Under the pieces are notes generated by a model. The model searched no databases and was not told where the DNA came from. It was given only the letters and a program-made list of their open reading frames with translations. The position numbers and the translations under genes are program-made. From an uncultured Candidatus Saccharibacteria bacterium (GTDB lineage Bacteria > Patescibacteriota > Minisyncoccia > GWC2-36-17 > WO2-46-25): DNA of 64,000 bases. Below are positions 2,597 through 36,841 of the stretch, piece by piece; position 1 is the stretch's first letter; the number at the start of each line of letters is the position of its first letter. The stretch covers positions 39,797 to 103,796 of the forward strand of contig CAYHUB010000001.1 of assembly GCA_964359755.1 (NCBI GenBank), given 5' to 3'.

Positions 2597-2627
2597 AAAG
2601 AGTGCATTACGCACTCTTTTATTGTAT
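2597..2627 (+). terminator. rho-independent terminator (9-bp stem aaagagtgc/gcactcttt followed by a T-run)
   Basis: Perfect inverted repeat 2597-2605/2611-2619, followed by ttttattgtat. Confidence 0.6.
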
Positions 2628-2666
2628 ATCTTTTCGCTCATGGGGGCGGCGTGCTACACTGCGCAC

Positions 2667-3386
2667 ATGAAGCATCGGATACACAATGAAAAGGGGTCTG
2701 CGCTTCCGCTCGGGAATATCGTGCTTGCGACGATTGCGGCAGTTATGCTTATTGGCGTGGTGTGGTACATGGGGGGCCCGCGCGGAACTACGACCGAGAA
2801 AAAAACAACAGCGCAATCTCAAAAAGGCGAGGGTGATGAACGCGTTGAAATCGGCGCGGGAGGTTCCCCGTCGATCGGACGGCCTGATGCGAAAGTGACC
2901 ATTATTGAGTTTGCCGATTATCAATGCCCGTTTTGCGCGGTGCTTCATGCGGGCGCGGAAGCGGCGATCATAGACGAATACGTAAAAAAAGGGAAGGCGC
3001 GGTTTACCTTCAAACATTATCCTTTTTTAGGGGATGAATCGGTGCGTGCCGCGACCGCAAGCAAATGCGCGCAGGAACAAGAGAAATTTTGGGAGTATCA
3101 CGATGCGCTTTTTGAACGGCAAATGCAGAACACGGGCGAGAATGCCGGCGTTTTTTCCGGTGAAAATCTGAAACGCACTGCGGAAAATGTCGGGCTGAAC
3201 GAAGGGATGTTTGAAAAATGCCTTGCATCGGGAAAATATGAACAGATAATACTCGATGAGATGGAAGAAGGCAGACAGGCGGGCGTGGAAAATACTCCGA
3301 CCATGTTCATCAACGGGCGAAAAACCGAAGGCGCGCTGACGTTTGATGCGTATAAGGCGATAATCGATGAAGAGCTGAGCCGATAG
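2667..3386 (+). CDS. DsbA-family thiol:disulfide oxidoreductase (thioredoxin fold, CPFC active site), membrane-anchored
   Basis: C-P-F-C motif in FADYQCPFCA, preceded by an N-terminal TM helix. The ORF-track start at 2622 overlaps the upstream terminator hairpin, so the start is moved to the ATG at 2667. Confidence 0.75.
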   Translation: MKHRIHNEKGSALPLGNIVLATIAAVMLIGVVWYMGGPRGTTTEKKTTAQSQKGEGDERVEIGAGGSPSIGRPDAKVTIIEFADYQCPFCAVLHAGAEAAIIDEYVKKGKARFTFKHYPFLGDESVRAATASKCAQEQEKFWEYHDALFERQMQNTGENAGVFSGENLKRTAENVGLNEGMFEKCLASGKYEQIILDEMEEGRQAGVENTPTMFINGRKTEGALTFDAYKAIIDEELSR

Positions 3387-3394
3387 AAAAATGC

Positions 3395-3423
3395 TTGGCG
3401 TTTTACGCGAAGACGGATATAAT
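3395..3423 (+). promoter_or_regulatory. sigma70-like promoter (TTGGCG-N17-TATAAT) ending 6 nt before the trxB ATG; implies a leaderless transcript
   Basis: -35 at 3395-3400, -10 TATAAT at 3418-3423, ATG at 3430. No SD. Confidence 0.4.
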
Positions 3424-3429
3424 ACAACC

Positions 3430-4371
3430 ATGTACGACTTGATCATTATCGGCGGCGGACCTGCGGGGACTGCGGCGGCGGTGTATGCCGCGCGAAAAAA
3501 GATAAAAACCTTGCTTTGTACCGAGTCGTTCGGGGGGCAGTCGGTCGTGTCAGATAATATTGAAAACTGGATCGGTGAAAAAACCATTAACGGTCTTGAT
3601 CTCGCGAAGAAGTTCGAGGAGCATGTGCGCGCGCAGGAAGGGATAGAGATAAAAATGCCGGATCGCGCGGGAACGGTTCGCCGGTTGGAGGGGGGCGGGT
3701 TTGAAGTTGCTTCAGAAAAGGGAGAAGCGTACCTCGCAAAAACAGTGCTTGTGGTTTCGGGCGGGAGGCGGAGAAAACTCGGCGTGCCCGGAGAGGATGC
3801 ATTCTCGGGAAAAGGGGTTGCGTATTGCGCGACGTGCGACGCGCCGTTGTTTCGAAATAAAACAGTTGCCGTCGTGGGAAGCGGCAATGCGGCGCTTGAA
3901 GCGGTGATCGATCTGTTGCCATACGCGACGCACGTGTATCTACTTGTGCGCGGCGATCAATTGAAAGGAGATATGACCACGCAAGCGGAAGTAAAGAATT
4001 CGCCGAAGGTGACGGTGCTTATGAATACGACAGCGCAAGAGATCACAGGGGATACATTTGTGCGGGCGCTCACCTATGCCGATAAGGCCACGAATGAGAA
4101 AAAAACGCTTGATGTGGGCGGGGTGTTTGTCGAGATCGGCTCAATGCCGAATACGGAGATGGTAAAGGATGTCGTGAAGCTGAATGATTTTGGGGAAATC
4201 GTCGTTGATCCGGTGCATGGCACAACATCGCAGGCGGGCATCTGGGCGGCGGGGGATGTGACGGACGGTCCGTATAAGCAAAATAACATTGCGGCGGGAG
4301 ACGCGGTGAAAGCAACGCTCTCTATTTATGCGTATCTTTTAAAGCAAGAAAAGACCGCTTTGCGTATATAA
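3430..4371 (+). CDS. trxB: thioredoxin-disulfide reductase
   Basis: N-terminal FAD Rossmann motif IIIGGGPAG and redox-active CATCD motif. NAD(P)-binding GSGNAALE also present. Start chosen at MYDLIIIGGG (3430) rather than the ORF-track 3391. Confidence 0.9.
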   Translation: MYDLIIIGGGPAGTAAAVYAARKKIKTLLCTESFGGQSVVSDNIENWIGEKTINGLDLAKKFEEHVRAQEGIEIKMPDRAGTVRRLEGGGFEVASEKGEAYLAKTVLVVSGGRRRKLGVPGEDAFSGKGVAYCATCDAPLFRNKTVAVVGSGNAALEAVIDLLPYATHVYLLVRGDQLKGDMTTQAEVKNSPKVTVLMNTTAQEITGDTFVRALTYADKATNEKKTLDVGGVFVEIGSMPNTEMVKDVVKLNDFGEIVVDPVHGTTSQAGIWAAGDVTDGPYKQNNIAAGDAVKATLSIYAYLLKQEKTALRI

Positions 4372-4452
4372 CACACAATTGCGTGATATGCGGGGTTTTG
4401 TGAAAAGCATGAATAAAGGTATTTTTAACTACAAACATTAATATAAGCATAT

Positions 4453-5472
4453 ATGATACGAGTTGCGATCAATGGGTTTGGGAGAATAGGGCGCATGTTT
4501 TTTCGGGTCGGATTTCCCCGGGAAGAGTTGGAGATCGTTGCAATAAACGATCTGGGCGATATTGAAAATCTTGCGTATTTGCTAAGGCATGATTCGGTAT
4601 ACCGCGATTGGGGGCATGATGTGTCGGTGCACGAAGGGAAGCTGGTCGTGGACGGCAAAAGTATCGCATTTATTCAAGAAAAAGACCCGACAAAACTCCC
4701 ATGGAAAGATCTTGAAATTGATGTTGTGGTGGAATCAACCGGCCTTTTTGAAACATTTGAGAAGGCGAAGGTGCATGTGGTCTCAGGAGCAAAGCGCGTG
4801 GTTATTTCCGCGCCGGCAAAAGACGATGAATGCGACGATGCAAAAACGGTCCTGATGGGTATGAATGAAGATGAACTTGAAAACATCAGCGTCAGTTCAA
4901 ATGGTTCGTGTACGACCAATTCCGTGCACCCCGCTATACAGGTGCTGAACGAAACGATCGGCGTGAAGAAGGCGATGCTTACGACGGTGCACGCGTATAC
5001 GGCAACGCAAAAGCTGGTGGACGGCCCCGATAAAGGCGATTGGCGCAGAGGACGCGCTGCGGCACAGAACATTTCGCCCTCAACTACGGGAGCCGCGATC
5101 GCGGTGACGCGCGTCGTGAAGGAATTGCAGGGAAAATTCGACGGTATTGCGGTGCGGGTGCCGGTGATATCCGGCTCGCTTTCAACCGTTGTGTTTCTTG
5201 CGGCTCGTCCGACCAGTATTGAAGAAGTGAACGAAGCGCTCACAAAAGCGGAACAAACCGCGCGCTGGAAAGGCGTATTTAAAACCACAACCGATCCGCT
5301 CGTATCCTCCGATATCATCGGCATACCGTATGCCTCGCTTGTCGATTGTTCGCTTACGAAGGTCATTGATGGCGATCTGGTAAGCATCGGCGCGTGGTAT
5401 GATAATGAAATGGGGTACACGCATATGCTGGTTGAGCATGTGATCAAATCGGGAGCATACGCGAAGAAATAA
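4453..5472 (+). CDS. gap: glyceraldehyde-3-phosphate dehydrogenase, type I
   Basis: INGFGRIGR NAD-binding motif. SNGSCTTNS active-site block with the catalytic Cys. TTVHAYTATQK and AAQNISPSTTGAA blocks. Confidence 0.92.
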   Translation: MIRVAINGFGRIGRMFFRVGFPREELEIVAINDLGDIENLAYLLRHDSVYRDWGHDVSVHEGKLVVDGKSIAFIQEKDPTKLPWKDLEIDVVVESTGLFETFEKAKVHVVSGAKRVVISAPAKDDECDDAKTVLMGMNEDELENISVSSNGSCTTNSVHPAIQVLNETIGVKKAMLTTVHAYTATQKLVDGPDKGDWRRGRAAAQNISPSTTGAAIAVTRVVKELQGKFDGIAVRVPVISGSLSTVVFLAARPTSIEEVNEALTKAEQTARWKGVFKTTTDPLVSSDIIGIPYASLVDCSLTKVIDGDLVSIGAWYDNEMGYTHMLVEHVIKSGAYAKK

Positions 5473-5487
5473 TCAAAGAATAAAAAT

Positions 5488-5766
5488 ATGTTCGACAGCT
5501 ACCACTACTACATCTTTATTCTTCTATTGCTGTTTTGTATTTTACTGCTCGTGTTTAACAGTTTTGTGGTGCACCATTATTTTATTGACATCATTTCTGG
5601 CATCCTGCCATTTATTCCGATAGCCGGGTTTTTGTATCATCTGCGTTTTCAGGACGGAACGGTGATTCCGTTTTATGTGCTGTTTTGCGCTTTGCTTGCG
5701 GCGTATGTTGTCGTGTTTGCCGGTATGAAGATATATGCGATATTTAATCCTTCAGAAGGAATATGA
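5488..5766 (+). CDS. small hydrophobic membrane protein (about 3 TM helices), function unknown
   Basis: 92 aa, highly hydrophobic. 4-bp ATGA overlap with rpiB suggests translational coupling. Confidence 0.45.
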   Translation: MFDSYHYYIFILLLLFCILLLVFNSFVVHHYFIDIISGILPFIPIAGFLYHLRFQDGTVIPFYVLFCALLAAYVVVFAGMKIYAIFNPSEGI

Positions 5767-6233
5767 TCATTTATCTTGGCGCCGACCACGCGGGATTCGC
5801 GCTGAAGCAAAAAACGAAAGAATTTTTGGAAAGCGAAGGGTATGAGGTCGCGGATATGGGCGCGTATGCAAACAACGATGGCGACGACTACCCTGAGTTT
5901 ATTGCGGCGGCGGCACAAGCGGTCGCCAACGACCTTATTAAAGGCGTTGATTCGCGCGGGATCATTTTCGGCGGGTCGGGGCAAGGCGAGGCAATGGCGG
6001 CAAATCGCATTCACGGCATTCGCGCGGCGGTATTTTACGGCCCCTCGACTTCGCTCAGGACAGGCGGCCCGCTTGAAATAATAAAACTTTCACGAGAGCA
6101 TAATGACGCAAATATGCTTTCGATCGGTGCGCGGTTTGTTTCCGAGCAGGAAGCGCTTGATGCGGTGAAGCTGTGGCTCGACACCCCGTTTTCCAACGAA
6201 GAACGGCACAGAAGAAGGATAATGAAGTTCTAA
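5763..6233 (+). CDS. rpiB: ribose-5-phosphate isomerase B
   Basis: N-terminus MIIYLGADHAGFALKQK matches the RpiB/LacAB signature. Size is 156 aa. Confidence 0.88.
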   Translation: MIIYLGADHAGFALKQKTKEFLESEGYEVADMGAYANNDGDDYPEFIAAAAQAVANDLIKGVDSRGIIFGGSGQGEAMAANRIHGIRAAVFYGPSTSLRTGGPLEIIKLSREHNDANMLSIGARFVSEQEALDAVKLWLDTPFSNEERHRRRIMKF

Positions 6234-6245
6234 GCGTGGTATGTC

Positions 6246-6368
6246 CAGCCATCACTCCTCAATTCTTTCTTTTATCTTAATCCGCCAGCTGGCGGACAGC
6301 CTTTCGATAACTATTATATAAATAAAAAGCGTGAGAGGATTAAAGAAGGAATTGAGGGGTGATGGCTG
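6246..6368. repeat. 123-bp element bounded by 20-bp terminal inverted repeats (19/20 match), with an internal perfect 14-bp palindrome ccgccagctggcgg
   Basis: 6246-6265 cagccatcactcctcaattc versus the reverse complement of 6349-6368, cagccatcacccctcaattc. Internal palindrome at 6282-6295. Sits in the rpiB-rpe intergenic region. Confidence 0.6.
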
Positions 6369-6396
6369 AAAAAGTATATTTCGTAATCCAAAATAA

Positions 6397-7053
6397 ATGA
6401 TAGAAATTGTTCCGGCGATCATTGCACGCGATAGCGAAGAAGTGAAGCAGAAGCTTGCGCTTATTGAGGGCGCGGTTGAGTGGGCGCAGATCGATGTAAT
6501 GGACGGCGTGTTCACGCCGCCGGTGACCTTCAATGACCCAGCTGCGTTGCGCGATATTACGACCACAGTACGTCTCGAAGCGCACTTGATGGTGGCGCAT
6601 CCGGAGAATGTTATTGATGCATGGATCAATTCGCCTGTTGCGCGTATTTTACTTCACTACGAATCAACAACGCCTGAAAAATTGGCGGAGCTTGCCGCAA
6701 AGGTCAGTGCCGCCGGCAAAGAGGTTGGTATTGCGCTTAAACTGGAAACCCCGATCTCTGTCTTAGACCCTTTGTTTCAAATTTCAAGCTTCACGTTTCA
6801 GGTAGTACAGCTGATGGGCATCGCCGAGATCGGGTATCATGGGCATCCATTTGATGAGCGCGTGCTCGACAAAATCCATGCGTTGCACGAGCACTATCCT
6901 AATGTTATAATAGCGGTTGACGGTGGTGTAAGTTTGGAAAACGCCGGTACAATTTTAGAGGCGGGCGCTCCTTGTTTGGTTGTCGGAAGCGCAATTTTTA
7001 AAAGCGATAACGCGAAAGAAACGATTAAGAAATTTCAATCTGCAGTTCTATAA
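6397..7053 (+). CDS. rpe: ribulose-phosphate 3-epimerase
   Basis: QIDVMDGVFTPPVTF, AHLMVAHPE and C-terminal DGGV...LVVGSAIF blocks typical of Rpe. Confidence 0.85.
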   Translation: MIEIVPAIIARDSEEVKQKLALIEGAVEWAQIDVMDGVFTPPVTFNDPAALRDITTTVRLEAHLMVAHPENVIDAWINSPVARILLHYESTTPEKLAELAAKVSAAGKEVGIALKLETPISVLDPLFQISSFTFQVVQLMGIAEIGYHGHPFDERVLDKIHALHEHYPNVIIAVDGGVSLENAGTILEAGAPCLVVGSAIFKSDNAKETIKKFQSAVL

Positions 7054-7071
7054 GCTAACGAAGTTAAACAT

Positions 7072-7968
7072 ATGACCACACTGCACGAAGAAAAAATAAA
7101 ACTACTCGAGGAAAAAGCAAATCTCATCAGGCAGAGCATCATTGAGATGCTTATTGAGGCAAAAAGCGGGCATTCCGCGGGGCCGCTTGGCATGGCGGAT
7201 GTATTCGCGCTTTTTTATTTCCACATCCTTAAACACGATCCGAAAAACCCGACATGGCCGGAACGGGACAGATTGATCCTGTCGAACGGGCATATTTGTC
7301 CGGTGTTGTATGCAACAATGGCGCACGCGGGTTATTTCCCTGTGGAGGAGTTGAAAACATTGCGAAAACTTCATTCGCGTTTACAAGGGCATCCGCACCG
7401 CGAATGGCTGCCGATGGTGGAAACGAGTTCCGGCCCGCTCGGCTCGGGGCTTTCGCAAGCGGTAGGCATGGCGCTTGCCGACAGGATGGACAACGGAAAG
7501 ACATCAGGGAAATTCTTTTATTGCTTCATGGGAGACGGCGAGCTTGATTGCGGGCAGGTGTGGGAAGCGACGATGCTCGCGGGCAAAGAAAAATTGCACA
7601 ATATCATCGGCGTTATTGACCGCAACAACATCCAGATTGACGGGTTTACCGAAGACATTATGCCGCTTGAACCGCTGAAAGAAAAATTCGAATCGTTCGG
7701 CTGGCATGTGCTTGAAGTGGACGGGCATAATTTTGAAGCGCTCTCCGACGCGGTAGGCCAAGCGCAGGCGGTTTTTGAAAAGCCGTCGATGATCATTGCG
7801 CATACGATCCCGGGGAAAGGAGTTGAATTCATGGAGCGTCGGTTTGAGTGGCACGGCGTACCGCCGGGCCAAGGACCGGAAGACAAAGTGAAGAAAGCCG
7901 AGCAGGGTCTTGAGGCGCTGAACGAGTTACGTACGCTCTGCGGCAAAATTAAATCTGAACATGAATAA
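7072..7968 (+). CDS. transketolase, N-terminal (TPP-binding) subunit
   Basis: GHSAGPLGMADV and GDGELDCGQVWEA motifs. The gene ends where the C-terminal subunit gene starts. Confidence 0.88.
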   Translation: MTTLHEEKIKLLEEKANLIRQSIIEMLIEAKSGHSAGPLGMADVFALFYFHILKHDPKNPTWPERDRLILSNGHICPVLYATMAHAGYFPVEELKTLRKLHSRLQGHPHREWLPMVETSSGPLGSGLSQAVGMALADRMDNGKTSGKFFYCFMGDGELDCGQVWEATMLAGKEKLHNIIGVIDRNNIQIDGFTEDIMPLEPLKEKFESFGWHVLEVDGHNFEALSDAVGQAQAVFEKPSMIIAHTIPGKGVEFMERRFEWHGVPPGQGPEDKVKKAEQGLEALNELRTLCGKIKSEHE

Positions 7969-8950
7969 TATGGACACACTCAATCCGAAATTGTTCGATA
8001 AAGACGTAGAACAGCTTCCTATCCGCAAAGGATACGGCGACGGCTTGTTGCAGGCGGGGAAGGAAGATGAGCGGATTGTGGCGCTGTGCGCCGACCTGAC
8101 CGGCTCGACGATGACGAGCGTGTTTTCCAAAGAATTTCCGAAACGATTCGTGCAAATGGGCATCGGCGAACAATCAATGGCATCGGTCGCTTCCGGCATG
8201 GCGGCGATGGGGAAAATTCCGTTTCTCGCTTCGTATGCGATGTTTTCGCCCGGGCGCAACTGGGAACAGATTCGTACCACGATCTGCTACAATGATTCTA
8301 ATGTGAAAATTGCGGGCGCGCATGCGGGCGTTTCCGTGGGGCCTGACGGCGGCACGCATCAGGCGGTTGAGGATATTGCGATCACGCGGGTCATCCCGCG
8401 CATGACGGTTATTGTGCCATGCGACGCCATTGAAGCGAAAAAGGCGACGCTTGCGGCGGCAAAAATGACAGGCCCGGTGTATATACGGCTTGCGCGCGAA
8501 GCAACGCCGGTCATCACTACGGAAGCAACACCGTTTGCCATCGGGAAAGCACAGCTATTTTTCACGCCGAAGGAAAAAGCGCAGGTTGGCATTATCGCGG
8601 TCGGCGCGCTTGTCTATAATGCTATTATTGCGGCGCGTGAGCTCGAAGCGGAAGGAGTATATGCAACAGTAATGAATCTCGGCACCGTGAAGCCGATCGA
8701 TAAAGAGGCGGTTGTTGCGCTTGCAAAAGAAGCGGGTGCATTAGTGACGGTAGAAGAACACCAAGTTGCGTGCGGCGTCGGGTCTGCGGTCGCGGAAGTT
8801 CTTGTACAGCATCGTCCAGTGCCGATTGAATTTGTCGGCGTGCGGGATACGTTCGGTCAATCGGGAGAGCCCAATGAGCTTATTGAGCATTACGGCATGG
8901 GGGTGAGTCATATTAAGGACGCGGTGAAGAGAGTAATAGGAAGGAAGTAA
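7961..8950 (+). CDS. transketolase, C-terminal (pyrimidine-binding plus C-terminal domain) subunit
   Basis: MGIGEQSMASVASGMA and HAGVSVGPDGGTHQAVEDIA blocks. 8-bp overlap with the N-terminal subunit gene. Confidence 0.88.
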   Translation: MNNMDTLNPKLFDKDVEQLPIRKGYGDGLLQAGKEDERIVALCADLTGSTMTSVFSKEFPKRFVQMGIGEQSMASVASGMAAMGKIPFLASYAMFSPGRNWEQIRTTICYNDSNVKIAGAHAGVSVGPDGGTHQAVEDIAITRVIPRMTVIVPCDAIEAKKATLAAAKMTGPVYIRLAREATPVITTEATPFAIGKAQLFFTPKEKAQVGIIAVGALVYNAIIAARELEAEGVYATVMNLGTVKPIDKEAVVALAKEAGALVTVEEHQVACGVGSAVAEVLVQHRPVPIEFVGVRDTFGQSGEPNELIEHYGMGVSHIKDAVKRVIGRK

Positions 8951-8953
8951 TTT

Positions 8954-9958
8954 ATGTACGACGTTATCACTATGGGCGCGGCGACGCGGGATGTTTTTTT
9001 GTTGAGCGATCATTTTCGCGTGGCAAAAGACAAACATCTTTCGGCAGTCGGGGAGGTGCTCTATTTTAATCTGGGGTCAAAAAATGAATTGCAAGAAGTC
9101 ATTCTGACCACGGGCGGCGGCGCGACAAACGCGGCGGTAACATTTGCACGGCAAGGGTTAAGGACGGCGTGCATCTGCAGAGTCGGCGATGAGGAGAGCG
9201 GCCATGATGTGGTGCGTGCGCTTAAAAATGAAGGGATTACAACGGAATTCATCCAGCACGATAAAAAATCACCAACAGCGTACTCGACCATTCTCACGAC
9301 CAAAAAAGGGGAGCGGGTCATTTTAACGAAGCGCGGAGCATCTGATCATATCGACGCGCGCGCGATTCCCGTGAAACGCGTGCAGGCGAAATGGCTTTAT
9401 GTTTCTTCGGTCGCGGGCGATCTCGCATTGCTGAAAAAGGTTTTTGCCGTTGCGCACGCGCATGGCATACGCATTGCGATCAACCCCGGGATCCGTGAAT
9501 TGGAAAAAGGATTGCGTGCGCTTGAACCGCTCTTGCGCAGCGTGGACGTGCTGTTTGTGAATCATGAAGAGGCGGCGCAACTCACCGGTATTTCGCAGCG
9601 GAAAGAAAAAACTATTTTTGAAAAACTTGATGCGATTGTGCGCGGCATCGTGGTAATGACAAAAGGGCAAAAAGGCGTGGTGGTGTCCGACGGTAAAAAA
9701 GTATATCATGCGGGTGTTCCTAAGGCACCCATCGCGGGAAGGACGGGGGCGGGAGATGCGTTCGGTTCGGGTTTTATTGCCGGGCTTGCGCGGGGAAACA
9801 ATATTCCGTTCTCGATGCAATTAGGCACCGCAAATGCCACAGCGGTCATTCAGCATCTTTCTGCAAAGCAGGGTATTTTGCGAAAGGGTGAGTGGGGGAA
9901 ATGGCCGCGCGTAACCGTACAAGAAATTTCACTGAAAAATCATGGATACATCAATTGA
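8954..9958 (+). CDS. PfkB-family carbohydrate/sugar-phosphate kinase (ribokinase-like); possibly the 6-phosphofructokinase equivalent
   Basis: GGGATNAAVTFARQG and GAGDAFGSGFIAGL (PfkB signature 2). Sits inside the gap/rpi/rpe/tkt/fba cluster. Confidence 0.8.
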   Translation: MYDVITMGAATRDVFLLSDHFRVAKDKHLSAVGEVLYFNLGSKNELQEVILTTGGGATNAAVTFARQGLRTACICRVGDEESGHDVVRALKNEGITTEFIQHDKKSPTAYSTILTTKKGERVILTKRGASDHIDARAIPVKRVQAKWLYVSSVAGDLALLKKVFAVAHAHGIRIAINPGIRELEKGLRALEPLLRSVDVLFVNHEEAAQLTGISQRKEKTIFEKLDAIVRGIVVMTKGQKGVVVSDGKKVYHAGVPKAPIAGRTGAGDAFGSGFIAGLARGNNIPFSMQLGTANATAVIQHLSAKQGILRKGEWGKWPRVTVQEISLKNHGYIN

Positions 9959-11195
9959 AAGGATCGCGCGCGTATTGCGCACCGACAAGGATACGGTGGG
10001 AAATTTATGCAAGCGGATGGAAGAGGTGACAGGAAAAAGAAATGTCCCGCAAAAAGTGATGGAAGAGAACGATCTGCTTGTGGAGAAGTCTCTTACTGCG
10101 CTTGGCGTTGGGGGAAAAGCGTTTAATTTTGAGGTGTATCAGGCGCTTATCGCAAAAGTGAAGAAAAATGACGCGACCATTTTTGAGCTTTTTCGCAAGC
10201 CGCGATGTATTGACTATAAAGGGTGTAAGACGCTGTTAAACTTTGCCGAAGAGCTTGCAAATGTCGGCGAAGGATTTTTTCTTAAAAAAGAAAAAGCGAC
10301 AGAGTTGTTGAAGAACGAACCACCGGTGAATATCATGAAGGCGCTCGGGTACAAGGAGGTGAACGAGCTGATCGAGAAAGAAGACATTGATCAGGTATTT
10401 GCTGCGCTGCGGTTCGGGGAAGAACGGCAATGGCTGAATGAAGTGTTTTTCGCGCAATATAAAAATCTTACGGTCAATGATTTTGAGCGCAGAGGCATAC
10501 GGCTTGAAGTGCTTGACGGGAAATGGCTTACGATCGCGGAGCAATTCCTGAAAAAGAAATATCATAATGTGTCCCATCTCAAAGAATTGGGAGTGATATT
10601 TGTGATCCCGCTCGAGTTAAAAACACCCGGCGAAACGATGCGCGTGTTCGGGCTTATTCTGCATTATTTGCACGAGGTAAACTTTTACGCAAAATTGTTT
10701 ACGCTGTATGCGCAAACGCCTTCCAATTTCGCCGAGCGTGTTATTTCGTGTTTGCGCGGCGATGTGCTTGATGAGCAGATGCACAGCCATGTGGTATCCA
10801 ATTGGCTTATTGTACAGCGGTATCTTGCCAAAGAGGATGAATATGACTGGCGGTTATTCGCGCCGCATGTGAACCCGGAAGCGCTTCACTGGACGAAAGC
10901 GGAGGAAGATGTTGCGCGGCTCAATGAGCGGTTTGAGAATCTTGATCTGCATTTCTGGCACAATCTTGATTTTGTGGGAGAATTTTACCGCACGGAATCC
11001 GGCGTCGATAATCTCGTGAGCTTTAATCTGATCGACACCGTGATGTCGTTGGTCATGGAAAAGGATATGATCAAATATCTGTATCATCATCAGGAAGCGA
11101 TGTGGAACAAGCTATTTATGGAATACGTGGGCGGGCGCGATGAAATGGAGCGGCTTACCGTTGAAAACTTCATGAAAGGGTACATCGCGTTTTAA
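9942..11195 (+). CDS. hypothetical protein (417 aa) embedded in the sugar-phosphate operon; no recognisable motif
   Basis: Long ORF, overlapping the upstream kinase gene by 17 bp and ending 5 bp before fba. Soluble, no TM helices. Confidence 0.6.
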   Translation: MDTSIERIARVLRTDKDTVGNLCKRMEEVTGKRNVPQKVMEENDLLVEKSLTALGVGGKAFNFEVYQALIAKVKKNDATIFELFRKPRCIDYKGCKTLLNFAEELANVGEGFFLKKEKATELLKNEPPVNIMKALGYKEVNELIEKEDIDQVFAALRFGEERQWLNEVFFAQYKNLTVNDFERRGIRLEVLDGKWLTIAEQFLKKKYHNVSHLKELGVIFVIPLELKTPGETMRVFGLILHYLHEVNFYAKLFTLYAQTPSNFAERVISCLRGDVLDEQMHSHVVSNWLIVQRYLAKEDEYDWRLFAPHVNPEALHWTKAEEDVARLNERFENLDLHFWHNLDFVGEFYRTESGVDNLVSFNLIDTVMSLVMEKDMIKYLYHHQEAMWNKLFMEYVGGRDEMERLTVENFMKGYIAF

Positions 11196-11200
11196 TTGGC

Positions 11201-12091
11201 ATGAATTGTAATACGAAACAATTTTTCAGTGCTGCGGAGAACGGGAAATATGCGATCGGGCAGTTCAATGTGTCTACAGCAGATCAAATACGGGCAATTA
11301 TGAGGGTTGCGAAGGATCTCCGCTCACCGGTCATTATTGGCACGTCGGAAGGCGAGTGTGCATTTATTGGCGCGAGACAGGCGGTGAAGCTGTGCGAAGC
11401 ATACGAAGAAGAAGTGGGTGTCCCGGTCATTCTGAATGCCGATCATACCTATAAGGATGTGAAAGAGATAAAAAATCTTGATACGATACAAGCATTGCTT
11501 GATGCGGGGTATAATTCTATTCACTTTGACGGTTCCGTGCTGTCGTTTGAAGAAAATGTTGAGTGGACAAAGCAGGTGGTCGCAATGTGCAAAGAGAAGA
11601 ACCCGGGAATATCCGTGGAGGGTGAGCTCGGTTTTTTGCCCGGGGCATCGCAGATTTCTCAAGAAAAAGTGGAAATAAAGCCGGAGTATCTGACCGATCC
11701 GAAACAGGCGCTCGCATTTGTGGAAGCGACCGGCATCGATCGGCTCGCGGTGTCGGTCGGCAATAGCCACGGCATTTCATTTCAGGAGGATCGGCTTGAT
11801 ATTGAGCGCATCGCGGCGATCAAAGAGATGATCGGTGACCGCGCGGTGCTCGTGTTGCATGGCGGATCGGGAATCCCGGATGATCAGATACAAGCGGCGA
11901 TTGAGCACGGCATTCGAAAGATTAACATCAATACCGAACTTCGCGTCGCATTTCATGACGCGCTCAAAGCAACGCTTACAGGATCGGAACAAACAACCCC
12001 GTACAAGTTTTTGCCGCCGGCAATGGATGCGGTTGCGCGCGTGGTAGAGGGGAAAATAAAACTTTTTGGAAGCGGCAATGCTGCTAAGTGA
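11201..12091 (+). CDS. fba: class II fructose-/tagatose-bisphosphate aldolase
   Basis: N-terminal FSAAENGKYAIGQFNV, metal-binding H in LNADHT, and VLHGGSGIPDDQI blocks of the class II aldolase family. Confidence 0.85.
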   Translation: MNCNTKQFFSAAENGKYAIGQFNVSTADQIRAIMRVAKDLRSPVIIGTSEGECAFIGARQAVKLCEAYEEEVGVPVILNADHTYKDVKEIKNLDTIQALLDAGYNSIHFDGSVLSFEENVEWTKQVVAMCKEKNPGISVEGELGFLPGASQISQEKVEIKPEYLTDPKQALAFVEATGIDRLAVSVGNSHGISFQEDRLDIERIAAIKEMIGDRAVLVLHGGSGIPDDQIQAAIEHGIRKININTELRVAFHDALKATLTGSEQTTPYKFLPPAMDAVARVVEGKIKLFGSGNAAK

Positions 12092-13398
12092 TCATGGCAG
12101 ATACATTCATCATCAAAGGAGGAAAAAAGCTGAAAGGATCGATCGAGGTGCGCGGCGCAAAGAACGCCGCGTTTGCAGTGCTTGCCGCAACACTCCTTAC
12201 GAAAGAGACCTGTGAAATCGACAACGTGCCCCTTGTCAAAGATGTTTTCGTTATGCTGGAAATATTTACCAGTATCGGCGTGGAGCATGAATTCATCTCC
12301 GAGCGAAAACTGCGGATCTCTGCCGCAAAAATTTCCCCAAAAAACATCCGGCATGATGCCGTAGAAAAGATCCGCGCATCGGTGCTCTTGTGCGGGGCGC
12401 TTCCTGTGCGCGCGCCGCGCTTTGCGCTTACGAAGCCGGGCGGATGCTCGATCGGGTCACGGATCCTCGATCCGCATATCGATGCGCTTGCGCAGGTAGG
12501 TATTGAAATTAAAAAGCGCGGCAAATATCTTGATGTGATAAAACACGAAGTAGCGGGCGACCGCGAGATCGTGCTTTCTGAGATGTCAGTGACCGCGACC
12601 GAAAACGCGGTGCTTGCATCGGTGGTGCGCAAGGGCACGGTGACGATATATTGCGCCGCTTCGGAGCCATATGTGCAGGATCTCTGCCACATGCTGGTAA
12701 ACATGGGGGCTCACATTTCTGGCATCGGCACCAATACGCTTATTGTTAAGGGTGTCGCGAAATTACATGGCGTAAGGCACTTTATCATGCCCGACCCGAT
12801 AGAGATGGGGACGTTCATTACGCTTGCCGCCTGCACGAAAAGCCGTATCGTCATTAAAAATACCGTGCCGGAATTTATACGGTTCGATATGTTGAAGTTT
12901 GCGGAAGCGGGTGTTATAGTGAAGATGAAAAACCGAAGAAAAAATGCGCACGGATGGGGATATGAAATGGCGGATATGGAAGTTATACCGTCGCCGTTGG
13001 TTGCGGTGAAGAAGGTGCATAATATGCCGTATCCCGGGCTGTCTCCTGACATCCTTCCGATGTTTGTGGTGTTGATGACGCAGGCGCGCGGGATCAGTTT
13101 GATCCACGATTGGATGTACGAAGGAAGATTAAAATATGTTGAAGAGCTAAAACGCATGGGGGCGGATGCATTCATATGCGACCCGCACCGTGCGCTCATT
13201 ACGGGGCCGACGCCGCTTGAAGGAAAAGAGATCACCAGTTTCGATTTGCGGGCGGGAGCGGTGCTTATTATCGCCGCGCTTACCGCACAAGGGACGACCG
13301 TCATACAGAACGCGTATCAAGTCGACAGAGGGTATGAGGATATCGAAGGAAGGCTGAAAAAAATGGGGGCGAATATAAAAAGAATTTCTAATTCCTAA
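12088..13398 (+). CDS. murA: UDP-N-acetylglucosamine 1-carboxyvinyltransferase
   Basis: N-terminus FIIKGGKKLKGSIEVRGAKNAAFAVLAA is classic MurA. 436 aa. Confidence 0.9.
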   Translation: MIMADTFIIKGGKKLKGSIEVRGAKNAAFAVLAATLLTKETCEIDNVPLVKDVFVMLEIFTSIGVEHEFISERKLRISAAKISPKNIRHDAVEKIRASVLLCGALPVRAPRFALTKPGGCSIGSRILDPHIDALAQVGIEIKKRGKYLDVIKHEVAGDREIVLSEMSVTATENAVLASVVRKGTVTIYCAASEPYVQDLCHMLVNMGAHISGIGTNTLIVKGVAKLHGVRHFIMPDPIEMGTFITLAACTKSRIVIKNTVPEFIRFDMLKFAEAGVIVKMKNRRKNAHGWGYEMADMEVIPSPLVAVKKVHNMPYPGLSPDILPMFVVLMTQARGISLIHDWMYEGRLKYVEELKRMGADAFICDPHRALITGPTPLEGKEITSFDLRAGAVLIIAALTAQGTTVIQNAYQVDRGYEDIEGRLKKMGANIKRISNS

Positions 13399-13469
13399 TT
13401 GACCTAATTTCTAAATTTGGCATTGGGATTTAGGATTTAATTAGAAATTAGATATTAGGAATTTAAAGT
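13399..13469. promoter_or_regulatory. AT-rich imperfect palindromic intergenic region (taatttctaaat / atttagaaatta arms) between murA and mreB; likely terminator/operator plus promoter
   Basis: Reciprocal aatttctaa / ttagaaatt and cctaatt / aattagg arms around 13400-13460. Also TTGACC-N17 before mreB. Confidence 0.35.
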
Positions 13470-14477
13470 ATGTTTATTCGAAAGATCGGTATTGATCTTG
13501 GTACTACCAATACACTCGTATTCATTCCTAAAAAAGGGGTGGTGGTGAATGAGCCGACCGTTGTGGCGGTTTCCGCGCATGACCGATCGGTGATGGCGGT
13601 CGGAGCGGAAGCAAAAGAGATGCTCGGAAGAACGCCCGATGCGATTATCGCGTTACGGCCATTGAAGGAAGGAGTGATAGCTGACTACAAGATCACCGAA
13701 GCGATGATTTCTTATTTTCTCACGAAAGGGTGCGGGCGAATACGCCTTTTTAAGCCTGAAATGATGATATCGGTTCCTGCAGGAATTACTTCCACAGAGC
13801 GCCGTGCGGTGGTTGACGCCGCGATTCAGGCGGGCGCAAAGGCTGCGTATGTTGTAAAAGAGCCGGTGCTTGCCGCAATTGGCGCAGGTATCCCTATTAA
13901 CGAAGCATCCGGAAGCATGATCGTGAATATCGGCGGTGGAACATCGGAGATCGCGGTAATTTCGCTGGGGGGTATTGTGGCGTGGGCATCGGTACGCGTT
14001 GCGGGAAATAAGATCGATCAGGCGATTGCTGAGTATGTGCGCAAAACGCACAGTCTTGAGATCGGCGAGCGAACAGCCGAGGATATCAAGATAGGAGTCG
14101 GGTCTGCTGTTCCGGTGAAAGAGGAAGATTCTATGGACGTACGGGGGCGCGACATGATCACCGGTCTTCCGCGGACGATCCGCGTAACAACGAACGAGGT
14201 CGCGGAAGCAATTGCCGAGCCGTTAAAAGAGATCGTGCGCGCAGTAAAGTCCGTGCTTCAAGAAACGCCTCCCGAGCTTGCGGCGGATATTATGCATAAG
14301 GGGATGACGCTTTCGGGCGGCGGCGCTTTGCTTCGTAATATCGACGAGCTTTTATTTAAAGTGACCGGCGTGTCGTGTACGAAAGCGAATGAACCGCTGT
14401 TGTGTGTCGCAAAAGGGACCGGCATCGTACTTGAAAATCTTGATGTATATAAACGAAGTGTGATGAGTAAAAAATAG
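13470..14477 (+). CDS. mreB: rod-shape-determining actin homologue MreB
   Basis: IGIDLGTTNTLVF phosphate-1 motif and NIGGGTSEIAVIS. 335 aa. Confidence 0.9.
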   Translation: MFIRKIGIDLGTTNTLVFIPKKGVVVNEPTVVAVSAHDRSVMAVGAEAKEMLGRTPDAIIALRPLKEGVIADYKITEAMISYFLTKGCGRIRLFKPEMMISVPAGITSTERRAVVDAAIQAGAKAAYVVKEPVLAAIGAGIPINEASGSMIVNIGGGTSEIAVISLGGIVAWASVRVAGNKIDQAIAEYVRKTHSLEIGERTAEDIKIGVGSAVPVKEEDSMDVRGRDMITGLPRTIRVTTNEVAEAIAEPLKEIVRAVKSVLQETPPELAADIMHKGMTLSGGGALLRNIDELLFKVTGVSCTKANEPLLCVAKGTGIVLENLDVYKRSVMSKK

Positions 14478-14482
14478 AAAGC

Positions 14483-15556
14483 ATGAATATTGGTATTCAC
14501 GCAAAAGGCGCATTTAAATATGAACGTACCGGGGTTGAGGAGTATGTGTATCAGCTTCTCAAGCATTTTGCAATGCTTGATGAGTCAACGAATCACTCTT
14601 TTCTTCTCTATACCCCGTATTATAAAGACACCTTATATCTGCCGAAGAACTTTTCAGTACGGCGGCTTCGCAGCATATTTTTTTGGACGAGATTCCGTCT
14701 CTCGATGAAGATGCTTTTTGACGCACCGGATGTGCTTTTCATGCCGGCTAATTTTTTACCTGTTTTTTATCCCAGCCGTACGGTTGCGACGATTCACGGG
14801 TTGGAATTTGAATATTTCCCCGAGGTATTTGCGCCTTCGCAACTGGCGTATTTGAAAGAAGGCACGCGCCGCGTGGTGCGCTCCGCGAAAAAAATCATCG
14901 TACCGACGAACGCAGGAAAAGAAGATCTTATCAAATTCTATAAGGCGGATCCGAACAAAATAATTGTTATCCAGCATGGCGTCAATCCGCAGGTGGCGTA
15001 TCATCATCGGTATCCGCCGATCGACGAGCAGTATATTTTATTCGTCGGGAAGCTCGAAAAAAAGAAGAACGTACAAAGTATCGTGAAAGCATTTGCGGTA
15101 TTGAAAGAGAAATATAAGATCCCGCATAAATTAGTGCTCGTGGGGAGTCCAGGGTTTGGATATCATGAAATACAAAAAGAAATAGAAAGAACGCTGTATA
15201 AAACCGATATCATACTCACCGGATACATCAGCCAAGAGGAAAAAGAGTCGTTCTTCAAATATGCTGACGTATTCGTGTTCCCGTCGCTGTATGAAGGATT
15301 TGGTATGCCGATCCTCGAAGCGCAGCTCAGGCAGGTTCCGGTGGTCACGTCGCGGATTCCTAATATCATGGAGGTTGCGGGAGACGGAGCTTTATTTGTC
15401 GATCCTATGAGCGTACAGCAGCTTACCGAGGCGGTTATGAGCGTGGTTTCCGATGATGCCATACGAGTTGACCTTGTTGCAAAAGGAATAAAAAATTCCC
15501 AGAAATACAGCTGGTTTAAGTGCGCGAAGGAGACGCTTGAAGCTTTGACTTCTTAG
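14483..15556 (+). CDS. GT4-family glycosyltransferase
   Basis: C-terminal FVFPSLYEGFGMPILEA (E-x7-E GT4 motif). Confidence 0.8.
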   Translation: MNIGIHAKGAFKYERTGVEEYVYQLLKHFAMLDESTNHSFLLYTPYYKDTLYLPKNFSVRRLRSIFFWTRFRLSMKMLFDAPDVLFMPANFLPVFYPSRTVATIHGLEFEYFPEVFAPSQLAYLKEGTRRVVRSAKKIIVPTNAGKEDLIKFYKADPNKIIVIQHGVNPQVAYHHRYPPIDEQYILFVGKLEKKKNVQSIVKAFAVLKEKYKIPHKLVLVGSPGFGYHEIQKEIERTLYKTDIILTGYISQEEKESFFKYADVFVFPSLYEGFGMPILEAQLRQVPVVTSRIPNIMEVAGDGALFVDPMSVQQLTEAVMSVVSDDAIRVDLVAKGIKNSQKYSWFKCAKETLEALTS

Positions 15557-15580
15557 AACCCATTTCACCATAACACTATT

Positions 15581-16747
15581 GTGCGCGTCGTTCTCGTCCA
15601 TGATTTTTTAACGCAATTCGGAGGAGCCGAACGCGTGTTAACGGTGCTCGCTTCATTATTCCCTGAAGCGCCCATTTATACGCTGGTATATGATGAAGAG
15701 ATCGTACGCAAGCATTTTTCCGAAAGAGAAGTGCGCGGATCTTTTTTGCAGTCGCTTCCGGCAGGCATCCGCACACGGCACCGGTTGTTATTGCCGTTGT
15801 ACCCGTATGCGCTCGGACGGTTCAATGTGCGTGATTTCGATATAGTGATTTCTTCGTCTTCCGCATTCGCAAAAGGCGTGCAGCGAGGGCTCCATGCCAT
15901 ACATATCTGTTATTGCCATGCAACCGCGCGATTTTTATGGGAGGAACAGGAACAATATCTGAGAGATAACAAGTACGGAGCAATCACAAAGATGGCGGTG
16001 AAGCATCTGCTTACGCCGTTATTACGGCGCTGGGATATCGCGTCTGCGCGCAGGGTTGATGTATGGATCGCGAATTCGGCGACAACGCAACTGAAAATAC
16101 ACGAGCGGTACGAGAAGAACGCAACAGTGATATATCCGCCGCTTACAAAACTTGATCATACCAAGAAACACGATGCGCATCCCCGGGAATATTTTTTACT
16201 CGTATCGCGTTTGGCGGCATATAAAAAAATTGATGTGGTGATAGATGCATTCACGATACTCGGATTGCCGTTGGTCATCGTCGGCACCGGACCCGAGGAG
16301 AAGCGGTTTAAAAAGAAGGCAGGGAAAAATATCTCCTTTCGCGGATTTGTCACCGACAAGGAGCTTGCGGAGCACTATCGCAATGCGGTCGCGCTTATTG
16401 TCGCATGCGAGGAAGATTTTGGAATAAGCGCGATTGAAGCGCTGAGTTTTGGTACGCCGGTGCTTGCGTATCGCAAAGGCGGGGTAATGGAGTGGATGGA
16501 AGAAGGAAGAACAGGAGAATTTTTTGATAAGCAGACATCTTCGGAAATCCGCGATGGCGTGCGAAAGATATTGCACAATAACGCGCGTTATGCTTGCGCA
16601 TATCTTCAGGAGGTTGCGTCTCGGTTCGACGAAAGTGAATTTCGAGCGGCAATACTCCGCATGGTGTCGTTGCATGAGATTGACTTTTTTCAAAGGAAAG
16701 AGTACGATAAAAACAATAGTGAAACCGTAGACAAGAGGCCCGGCTGA
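15581..16747 (+). CDS. GT4-family glycosyltransferase
   Basis: GTG start. VHDFLTQFGGAERV N-terminus typical of GT4 mannosyl/glucosyl transferases. CEEDFGISAIEALSFGTPVLA block. Confidence 0.8.
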   Translation: MRVVLVHDFLTQFGGAERVLTVLASLFPEAPIYTLVYDEEIVRKHFSEREVRGSFLQSLPAGIRTRHRLLLPLYPYALGRFNVRDFDIVISSSSAFAKGVQRGLHAIHICYCHATARFLWEEQEQYLRDNKYGAITKMAVKHLLTPLLRRWDIASARRVDVWIANSATTQLKIHERYEKNATVIYPPLTKLDHTKKHDAHPREYFLLVSRLAAYKKIDVVIDAFTILGLPLVIVGTGPEEKRFKKKAGKNISFRGFVTDKELAEHYRNAVALIVACEEDFGISAIEALSFGTPVLAYRKGGVMEWMEEGRTGEFFDKQTSSEIRDGVRKILHNNARYACAYLQEVASRFDESEFRAAILRMVSLHEIDFFQRKEYDKNNSETVDKRPG

Positions 16748-16805
16748 AAGGCATATAAGCCCTCTCGAGGTATAAACCTTATCTTCCCCTGTGAAGATGC
16801 GTCTG

Positions 16806-16829
16806 CGGCCTTAAAAGGTCGTTTTTTTA
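16806..16829 (+). terminator. rho-independent terminator after the GT4 gene, immediately upstream of rplJ
   Basis: cggcctt..aaggtcg stem with one G-U pair, followed by ttttttt. Confidence 0.45.
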
Positions 16830-16851
16830 TTGGGTATTAACATAGTGGTAT

Positions 16852-17361
16852 ATGTCGCTTACAAGAAAACAAAAAGAGACGATAGTTGCATCGGTCGCGG
16901 ACAAGCTTTCAAAAAGCAATGTGCTTTTATTTACATCGTTTGCAAAGATCAGTGTCGAGAAGTTAAAGCAATTACGGAAAGAGCTTAAAGCAAAAAGCAT
17001 TGATTTTAAGGTTGTGAAAAAAAATCTTTTGCGCGTGGCGCTTGAAAAAGCGAAAATCGACGCGTCGGCGGCTGACATGAAAAAGATCCCTGAAGCATGC
17101 GGCGTGGTTTTTGCGGCCGATGATCAGATCACTCCTGTGCGCACGATATACACATTCGCGAAAGCAAAAGAGAATGCGTCGTTCACCGTGATCGGAGGCA
17201 TACTCGATAATGCGTTTGTTGCGCCTGAGCGAATGGCTCCGCTTGCAAAAGTTTCAACGCGAGAAGAGTTGTATGCGCGGTTGCTTGGTCAGTTGCAGGC
17301 CCCGCTTGCAAAGCTTGTCTATGCAATTAAAGCAGTAGGGGAAAGTAAATCAGCTGTGTAA
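16852..17361 (+). CDS. rplJ: 50S ribosomal protein L10
   Basis: LTRKQKETIVASVADKLSKS...FKVVKKNLL pattern of bL10. Followed by rplL. Confidence 0.88.
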   Translation: MSLTRKQKETIVASVADKLSKSNVLLFTSFAKISVEKLKQLRKELKAKSIDFKVVKKNLLRVALEKAKIDASAADMKKIPEACGVVFAADDQITPVRTIYTFAKAKENASFTVIGGILDNAFVAPERMAPLAKVSTREELYARLLGQLQAPLAKLVYAIKAVGESKSAV

Positions 17362-17385: not shown

Positions 17386-17757
17386 ATGTCGGATAAATTT
17401 AAGAATCTGATCGAAGAAATCGAGAAAATGAGCGCGCTTGATATTGTCGAGCTCGTAAAGGCGCTTGAAGAAAAGTTTGGTGTGTCTGCGTCAGCTCCTG
17501 TCATGGCTGCGGGCGCAGCGGAGGGCGCAGCGGCAGTCGAAGAAAAAACATCGTTCAATGTCGAATTGAAATCGGCGGGCGAGCAGAAGATACAGGTTAT
17601 CAAGGCTGTCCGCGAGATCACCGGTCTTGGATTAAAAGAGGCGAAGGATATCGTTGACGGAGCGCCGAAAGTAGTAAAGGAAAACGTGGCAAAAGCGGAA
17701 GCGGAAGATATGAAAAAGAAATTGGAAGCGGCAGGCGCAACGGCGGAGTTGAAATAG
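17386..17757 (+). CDS. rplL: 50S ribosomal protein L7/L12
   Basis: N-terminal dimerisation helix, Ala-rich hinge, and C-terminal [25 protein letters not shown]. Confidence 0.92.
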
Positions 17758-17771
17758 TAGGAAAGCAAACA

Positions 17772-17810
17772 AAAACACCCTCCTGATATTTAGGAGGGTG
17801 TTTTTGTTTT
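17772..17810. terminator. bidirectional rho-independent terminator (caccctcc/ggagggtg stem)
   Basis: Stem flanked by an A-run and a T-run, between convergent rplL and the 554-aa minus-strand gene. Confidence 0.8.
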
Positions 17811-17815
17811 CATGC

Positions 17816-36775: not shown

Positions 36776-36796
36776 TCGTTTACATATTTATACAGT

Positions 36797-36832
36797 AAAA
36801 GCGAGCCGTGTTATGGCTCGCTTTTATTTTTT
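36797..36832. terminator. terminator hairpin (aaaagcgagcc/ggctcgctttt) between convergent dcd and the ThyX-like gene
   Basis: 11-bp stem followed by TATTTTTT. Confidence 0.7.
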
Positions 36833-36841
36833 ATATTTCAG

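Follow-up and report, generated by a model that had tools for sequence, protein, structure and literature searches.

What occupies the gap between rpiB and rpe in this Patescibacteria genome, and does it act on the genes around it? The two genes are separated by a 163-nt spacer, most of which is a 123-bp inverted-repeat element (6246-6368). A first-pass annotation of the sequence had put forward three candidates for it, i.e., a MITE-like insertion, a structured cis-regulatory RNA, and a protein operator. In the following, "the window" is the whole 64-kb stretch of DNA that was analysed, and positions refer to it unless another locus is named.

Anatomy of the element and its gene cluster

The element is flanked on the + strand by rpiB (ribose-5-phosphate isomerase B, 5763-6233, stop codon TAA at 6231-6233) upstream and rpe (ribulose-phosphate 3-epimerase, 6397-7053) downstream, and its annotated position between these cistrons is borne out by the open reading frames and their Pfam matches (PF02502 LacAB_rpiB and PF00834, respectively). 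From left to right, the spacer consists of an outer flank GCGTGGTATGTC (6234-6245, + strand), which lies outside the inverted segment described below, a left arm of 31 nt (6246-6276), an A+T-rich core or loop of 61 nt (6277-6337), a right arm of 31 nt (6338-6368), and an A/U-rich outer flank AAAAAGTATATTTCGTAATCCAAAATAA (6369-6396, + strand) that adjoins the rpe start codon. The 20-mer CAGCCATCACTCCTCAATTC at 6246-6265 was confirmed to recur as its reverse complement with one mismatch (19/20) at 6349-6368, and no further matches with up to three mismatches were found within the 64-kb window (0.00 expected from shuffles). The inverted repeat itself is thus present as annotated but longer than the 20 bp claimed, its 31-nt arms being 28/31 complementary (90%) and separated by 61 nt. 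Likewise, the sequence CCGCCAGCTGGCGG at 6282-6295, annotated as a perfect palindrome of 14 bp, was found in place, and the perfect palindrome actually spans 16 bp (TCCGCCAGCTGGCGGA, 6281-6296). It is restricted to the window lineage; the two other element-carrying species, L031 and L034, have CGCTTCCG instead. Additionally, a copy of the palindrome with one mismatch, GATCCGCCAGCTGGTGGATC, is located in coding DNA 5.9 kb upstream (373-392).

Among the inverted repeats of the 64 kb, this element alone has widely spaced arms, the other three being compact hairpins or a palindrome. It contains no ORF of note and has a GC content of 41.5% (window, 48.4%). Folding, a check that the first-pass annotation had proposed, yielded -65.5 kcal/mol (z = -8.4) for the + strand of the 163-nt spacer and -60.8 kcal/mol (z = -8.7) for the - strand, and no shuffled spacer matched the native fold energy on either strand. 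As single-stranded DNA, the spacer folded at -33.3 kcal/mol. The sense-strand hairpin is stable in both species, with -58.4 kcal/mol in L031 versus -65.5 kcal/mol in the window.

Contigs of the same-species locus were obtained from Hainich groundwater metagenomes (well H52) and from an NCBI Patescibacteria MAG (exact protein matches); Candidatus Azambacteria are the nearest named relatives. Since an identical spacer was recovered in contigs of at least four independent same-species assemblies, the element is not an assembly artefact.

The spacer is the largest gap in a co-directional + strand cluster extending from 2622 to 17361, in which gaps mostly measure 0-20 nt and which comprises dsbA-like, trxB-like, and gap genes, a 92-aa ORF, rpiB, rpe, a split transketolase, pfkB-like and fba genes, and others. 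No terminator-like site was detected in or beside the element in a terminator scan. The sole promoter-like match at the element (6352-6380, covering right arm and flank) was weak, and shuffled sequences gave as many. Because the cluster is tight and co-directional and neither a terminator nor a promoter signal intervenes, the spacer is most likely carried on the operon mRNA, i.e., co-transcribed with its neighbours. The 92-aa hydrophobic ORF (5488-5766) has no Pfam match and overlaps the rpiB start by 4 nt; an ORF of 89-92 aa occupies the same position in those relatives whose contigs extend that far.

The rpiB|rpe junction as an insertion site

Comparison with relatives identified the spacer as an addition within one lineage. 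The rpiB stop codon overlaps the rpe start codon (TAATG) in L020, L038-L041, and L045, and the two genes abut (TAAATG) in L032/L033. Given that rpiB and rpe abut or overlap without any spacer in close relatives, the 163-nt spacer is a lineage-specific insertion, in agreement with the insertion proposed in the first-pass annotation. Judged from these junctions, the arrangement of this Azambacteria-like clade without the insert is a translationally coupled overlap.

Other relatives carry unrelated sequences at the same place, namely 85 nt in L021, at least 90 nt with an 8-bp hairpin of its own in L036, at least 95 nt in L037, and a spacer common to L035 and L046 (53 nt in L035). None of the spacers of L021, L035, L036, L037, and L046 showed significant similarity to the element, while the last ~22 nt of the spacer are common to L034 and L036. 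The L035/L046 spacer was considered as a precursor or remnant and rejected, as its likeness to the element was not significant against shuffles. In L044 (RpiB 90% identical), a 2-kb type II restriction-modification cassette (L044:851-2849) lies exactly between rpiB and rpe, leaving spacers of only 19 nt and 12 nt. It encodes a 436-aa N6_N4_Mtase protein (with a weak SNase match) and a 232-aa RE_MjaI protein (MjaI-like endonuclease), and its GC content is 31-34% versus 49-53% in the flanking genes. The set of junctions compared marks rpiB|rpe in Azambacteria-like genomes as an insertion hot spot, where foreign or novel DNA, in one case a restriction-modification cassette, has been taken up repeatedly. 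A further Hainich relative, L046, has rpiB followed by the L035-like spacer and then by an ORF other than rpe (L046:492-705) that translates to MEVKPNIFLQQTFMVSLSNRTPSTSLRML...; this ORF looks like read-through of a palindromic repeat element and adds one more allele of the junction.

The element itself was found at the same site in two relatives, the sister species L031 (Rpe 95% identical, Hainich well H41; element at L031:2859-2973) and L034 (83%), the contig of the latter beginning inside its element. RpiB look-ups for the left half of the L034 element (P0122, P0128, and P0124) led instead to the restriction-modification insertion, to an empty site, and to a spacer of another type. In L031, a scaffold gap (N run, L031:2677-2776) close to the rpiB 3' end, ~170 nt before the element, prevents rpiB from being called there. 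About 55 nt are duplicated on both sides of this gap, as if two overlapping contigs had been left unmerged, probably because of co-occurring strains. In a tree of Rpe and the transketolase N-terminal protein (TktN), the window and L031 were grouped with 100% bootstrap support, and L032 joined them with 93.5%.

These patterns bear on the first candidate, a non-autonomous, MITE-like element akin to Correia, ERIC, or RUP that moved into the rpiB|rpe junction and was then inherited, lost, or re-oriented. We regard this as rather unlikely, although it has the architecture on its side: 123 bp with 31-bp terminal inverted repeats and an A+T-rich non-coding core, GC content below that of the window, a position inside a transcription unit, and a junction that demonstrably takes up foreign DNA. 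Empty sites in close relatives point the same way, as does L032, which is cleanly spacer-free although it is nested between element carriers (93.5% bootstrap). The L032 pattern requires precise loss, allelic replacement or recombinational exchange, or mobility; it fits a mobile element as well as it fits deletion, and it counts against the in-place palindrome that is favoured below. The same holds for the precursor of the spacer sequence, for which no candidate was found.

What speaks against mobility is, first, that no additional copy was detected, either within the 64 kb of the window or across ~0.2 Mb of related loci. Searches with nhmmer and blastn-short over 266 kb (window and loci) and then over later loci yielded no copies, and neither did a search with a degenerate arm pattern in IMG/VR or searches in plasmids and phages. 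In JGI metagenomes, a collection that does not hold this species' own locus, there was no hairpin-bearing match, and the three matches obtained were chance 20-mers. The element is hence apparently single-copy within ~64 kb of the host genome and the related loci and collections searched. Second, no direct repeat adjoins the arms, the flanking nucleotides being GTC/AAA in the window and GTT/AAA in L031. CREE duplicate a TA target. A TAA...TAA pair bounds the whole spacer in the window only and is absent in L031 and L034; as a target-site duplication it was therefore rejected as window-specific. Third, no transposase or integrase was present among the 58 window ORFs scanned. Finally, one site with two orientations and collinear flanks fits in-place inversion better than two independent insertions. 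From the MITE candidate of the first-pass annotation, the insertion, the terminal repeats, and the empty sites consequently stand, whereas copies (in the 64-kb window, ~0.2 Mb of relatives, and the collections) and a target-site duplication were not found.

Like CREE, ERIC, and RUP, the element is in the range of 100-160 bp with ~26-31 bp terminal inverted repeats, has no ORF, and resides inside a transcription unit (PMC2649163). As in CREE, a long mRNA hairpin would be formed as a potential RNase III substrate, and close relatives differ in whether they carry the element (PMC2649163). CREE, however, are bacterial MITEs with 100-250 copies per genome that can create promoters at their ends and may contain an IHF site, whereas the element was seen in one copy, with neither a convincing promoter nor a target duplication, and its sequence resembled none of the known elements in the collections searched.

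Core inversion and concerted change of the arms

The outer flanks of the spacer are collinear between the window and L031 (left, TAA-xxGTGGxAxGT, GCGTGGTATGTC in the window and TTGTGGCACGTT in L031; right, AAAAAxxTATTTCGTAAT), and the L031 core is the reverse complement of the window core. Flipping 6246-6368 raised the global alignment score to L031 from 132.5 to 205.5 with the flanks in the same orientation, and nhmmer matched L031 on the minus strand with an E-value of 2e-20, which is better than the 3.4e-11 for the other strand. Arm position 28, which is asymmetric and common to both species, flips together with the core; hence, the inverted segment spans at least 6273-6341. The orientation in L034 equals that in L031. 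As L034 matches L031, and the window and L031 group with 100% bootstrap support, the window orientation is the derived one by parsimony. In the loop, 3 substitutions were counted manually over ~45 aligned nt against L031, and the flanking DNA is 91.5-96.8% identical; by this count, the loop diverges at about the background rate.

The arms have changed in concert. Of 31 arm pairs compared between the window and L031, 25 are invariant, three have changed on both sides (G-C to U-A once, A-U to G-C twice), two have become U.G through a one-sided change in the window, and the remaining one lacks pairing in either species. No one-sided change leaves a pair open within the outer 27 pairs, and with eight changes placed at random, at least three compensatory doubles would arise with a probability of ~8e-5. 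Both one-sided changes in the window, A to G in the right arm relative to L031, are wobble-compatible on the + (sense) strand only. This strand-specific wobble is the sole hint of constraint at the RNA level and a weak one, as it concerns two sites only.

The covariation looked for as a sign of RNA structure is accordingly present, with three compensatory pairs, but it is not diagnostic of such structure, since DNA-level template switching between the arms yields the same pattern (PMC8794818, PMC8604942). One template-switch event can give several compensatory changes together with a loop inversion (PMC8794818), and template switching between imperfect repeat arms is described as homogenising the arms and inverting the spacer (PMC8604942). 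In non-coding plastid DNA, hairpin loops commonly flip between closely related species, and do so homoplastically (PMC6342102). The element shows the corresponding features, i.e., an inversion within a stem-forming repeat with collinear outer flanks, homogenised arms, and clustered compensatory changes.

We give an even chance to the reading that the element is a single-locus quasi-palindrome on the operon mRNA, the arms of which are kept complementary and which is occasionally flipped by DNA-level dynamics. A lineage-restricted, apparently single-copy quasi-palindrome (31-bp arms, 61-bp core) occupies the spacer inserted at rpiB|rpe; template switching between the arms during replication, or recombination within them, would keep the arms complementary; and the same DNA-level processes, a mechanism known elsewhere, would have flipped the core between the sister species, leaving the window in the derived orientation. 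The element is probably an unstable DNA palindrome rather than a dedicated regulator or a proven mobile element. It resembles plastid flip-flop loops and quasi-palindrome template switching (Monttinen & Loytynoja 2022) in that the inversion is bounded by stem-forming repeats with unchanged flanks. It also resembles the cases treated in PMC6342102, PMC8794818, and PMC8604942 in its complementary arms, its several compensatory changes, and its location in non-coding, presumably transcribed DNA. Unlike the typical cases in these papers (4-9 nt loops and 18-19 nt stems), it has a much longer loop of 61 nt and much longer arms of 31 nt, the host is a member of the Patescibacteria, and the event is deduced from only three lineages and not from direct observation of the mechanism. 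It is a new instance of known phenomena and not a new kind of system. Its weight is modest and lies in being a clean natural case, from a barely studied phylum, of a long intergenic hairpin with co-varying arms and a flipped loop; such a pattern could be mistaken for a selected RNA structure or a mobile element, and DNA-level template switching would explain it.

Inversion between repeats also characterises invertons, programmed and recombinase-driven switches, the orientation of which would here control how rpe and the transketolase genes after it are expressed. We consider this very unlikely. Like the invertons of PhaseFinder and DeepInverton, the element has inverted repeats around a short segment (<300 bp) with two orientations at the same locus, and its size is within the range, over 75% of PhaseFinder invertons being <300 nt (PMC11602134). 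A TATAAT hexamer in the core faces rpe in L031 and L034 and faces away from it in the window. The two orientations were, however, observed between species only: the window orientation was found in all six full-length same-species locus records (four contigs, four assemblies) and in all 12 partial contigs that extend into the core. A sigma-70-type promoter was absent from the core of both species, whichever way it was oriented, and an invertible promoter was rejected, the TATAAT having no -35 partner and the core scan being empty in the window and in L031. A tyrosine or serine recombinase is likewise missing from the 64 kb (no Phage_integrase or Resolvase match at E<=1e-8 among the 58 ORFs scanned), although a trans-acting enzyme is possible. 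Moreover, central pentose-phosphate genes are atypical inverton targets. In contrast to invertons, then, the element has no internal promoter, no nearby recombinase, and no contig-level heterogeneity within the population, and its orientations differ between species. An attC-like site was also rejected, as inspection of the ends revealed no GTTRRRY/RYYYAAC cores.

In assemblies, contigs repeatedly end within or close to the element, which could be taken to favour an inverton. In different runs, upstream Logan contigs stop at 6287 in five of six cases and at 6293 in the remaining one (L009), and the five downstream Logan contigs all begin at 6272. In one ENA assembly, the breaks are at 6243 and 6253. 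All breaks (window 6243-6293; L003-L009, L014-L019, and L004/L015) are confined to the left half of the element, at nearly identical positions in independent assemblies, and none falls in its right half. Since the ends of the Logan contigs overlap by 16 nt, k-mers appear to be missing there, which differs from a simple graph branch. Neither pair of break points (6287/6272 and 6243/6253) lies where a mixture of orientations would branch a k=31 graph; as a sign of mixed orientations, the breaks were therefore rejected. Two low-coverage same-species contigs, L012 and L013, which are 99.75-99.9% identical elsewhere, have their differences clustered in the left arm at 6256-6264. Our guess is that the assembly trouble reflects hairpin-induced failure of library preparation or sequencing; real left-arm heterogeneity from ongoing template switching is an alternative.

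A bolder version has the element as an actively flipping, hairpin-driven DNA switch that works without a local recombinase and tunes processing or translation of the pentose-phosphate operon, both orientations coexisting in natural populations. Its probability appears slight. If true, active flipping would explain the repeated assembly failure in the left half, and central metabolism in an ultra-small Patescibacteria genome would be subject to recombinase-independent phase variation. The presence of both orientations in one population would make the locus a more interesting case, i.e., phase variation in a reduced genome.

Possible effects on the transcript

The remaining candidates of the first-pass annotation require that the sequence itself be read, either as a riboswitch- or attenuator-like RNA, as a terminator, or as an operator centred on the 16-bp palindrome. 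Such a sequence-specific cis-regulatory element is highly improbable in our view, even though the element folds very stably, lies within a metabolic operon, and has a perfect palindrome the centre of which is PvuII-like. A 17-mer at the palindrome, ATCCGCCAGCTGGCGGA, recurs exactly in a distant Parcubacteria genome directly 3' of the stop codon of the last ORF (L023:7774-7790; ORF at 6733-7773), which would suit a regulatory motif. There, it forms a longer terminator-like palindrome, and chance or a shared motif are both possible.

No Rfam family was matched at the gathering threshold by the element; in Rfam 15, the best match was MIR815 with 28.5 bits versus a threshold of 63, i.e., generic microRNA-hairpin noise, and only two tRNAs passed the gathering threshold in the window. 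A U-tract is absent after the long stem (AAAAAG follows) and after the small hairpin (ACAGCC follows), whereas canonical terminators of the window do have one. As the loop is reverse-complemented between the sister species, no loop sequence is conserved on the sense strand, and most relatives are without the spacer altogether. The lack of an Rfam family and the inverted core in the sister species speak against the structured cis-regulatory RNA, and the absence of the palindrome from L031 and L034 speaks against the operator.

Translational control was assessed via the right arm, where GAGGGG is followed by an ATG at 6362 that opens a mini-ORF of 12 codons, the TGA of which overlaps the rpe ATG. 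The counterpart in L031 consists of GAGGAG, 6 nt, and an ATG with 7 codons. Shine-Dalgarno-like 4-mers at -20 to -4 precede only 8 of 46 window genes, upstream regions being A/T-rich, which suggests that initiation in the host genome is mostly Shine-Dalgarno-independent. Where so few genes show such a motif, GAGGGG in the right arm is irrelevant as a regulatory signal. Shine-Dalgarno sequestration or a leader peptide was rejected on the same frequency (8/46) and because neither peptide nor frame is conserved.

For the quasi-palindrome favoured above, any effect would lie in the structure of the stem and would not depend on orientation. The spacer would be transcribed with the operon mRNA and form a stem of ~31 bp, and the insert would break the translational coupling of rpiB and rpe. 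The long double-stranded RNA stem is predicted to be able to serve as an RNase III-type processing site or as a protective 3' hairpin, and the A/U-rich tail of 28 nt would stay unstructured for Shine-Dalgarno-independent initiation at rpe. A role as a neutral passenger is equally compatible with the data.

Two further features of the window were recorded. At 17755-17821 and 36786-36836 are two compact hairpins (arms, 22-30 nt; loops, 7 nt) with A-runs/T-runs on either side; they look like intergenic bidirectional intrinsic terminators, in contrast to the element with its missing U-tract. Additionally, a 574-aa ORF (36842-38566) matches the ThyX (Thy1) domain at residues 130-306 only; it is much longer than expected for ThyX, and extra domains or a fusion are possible.
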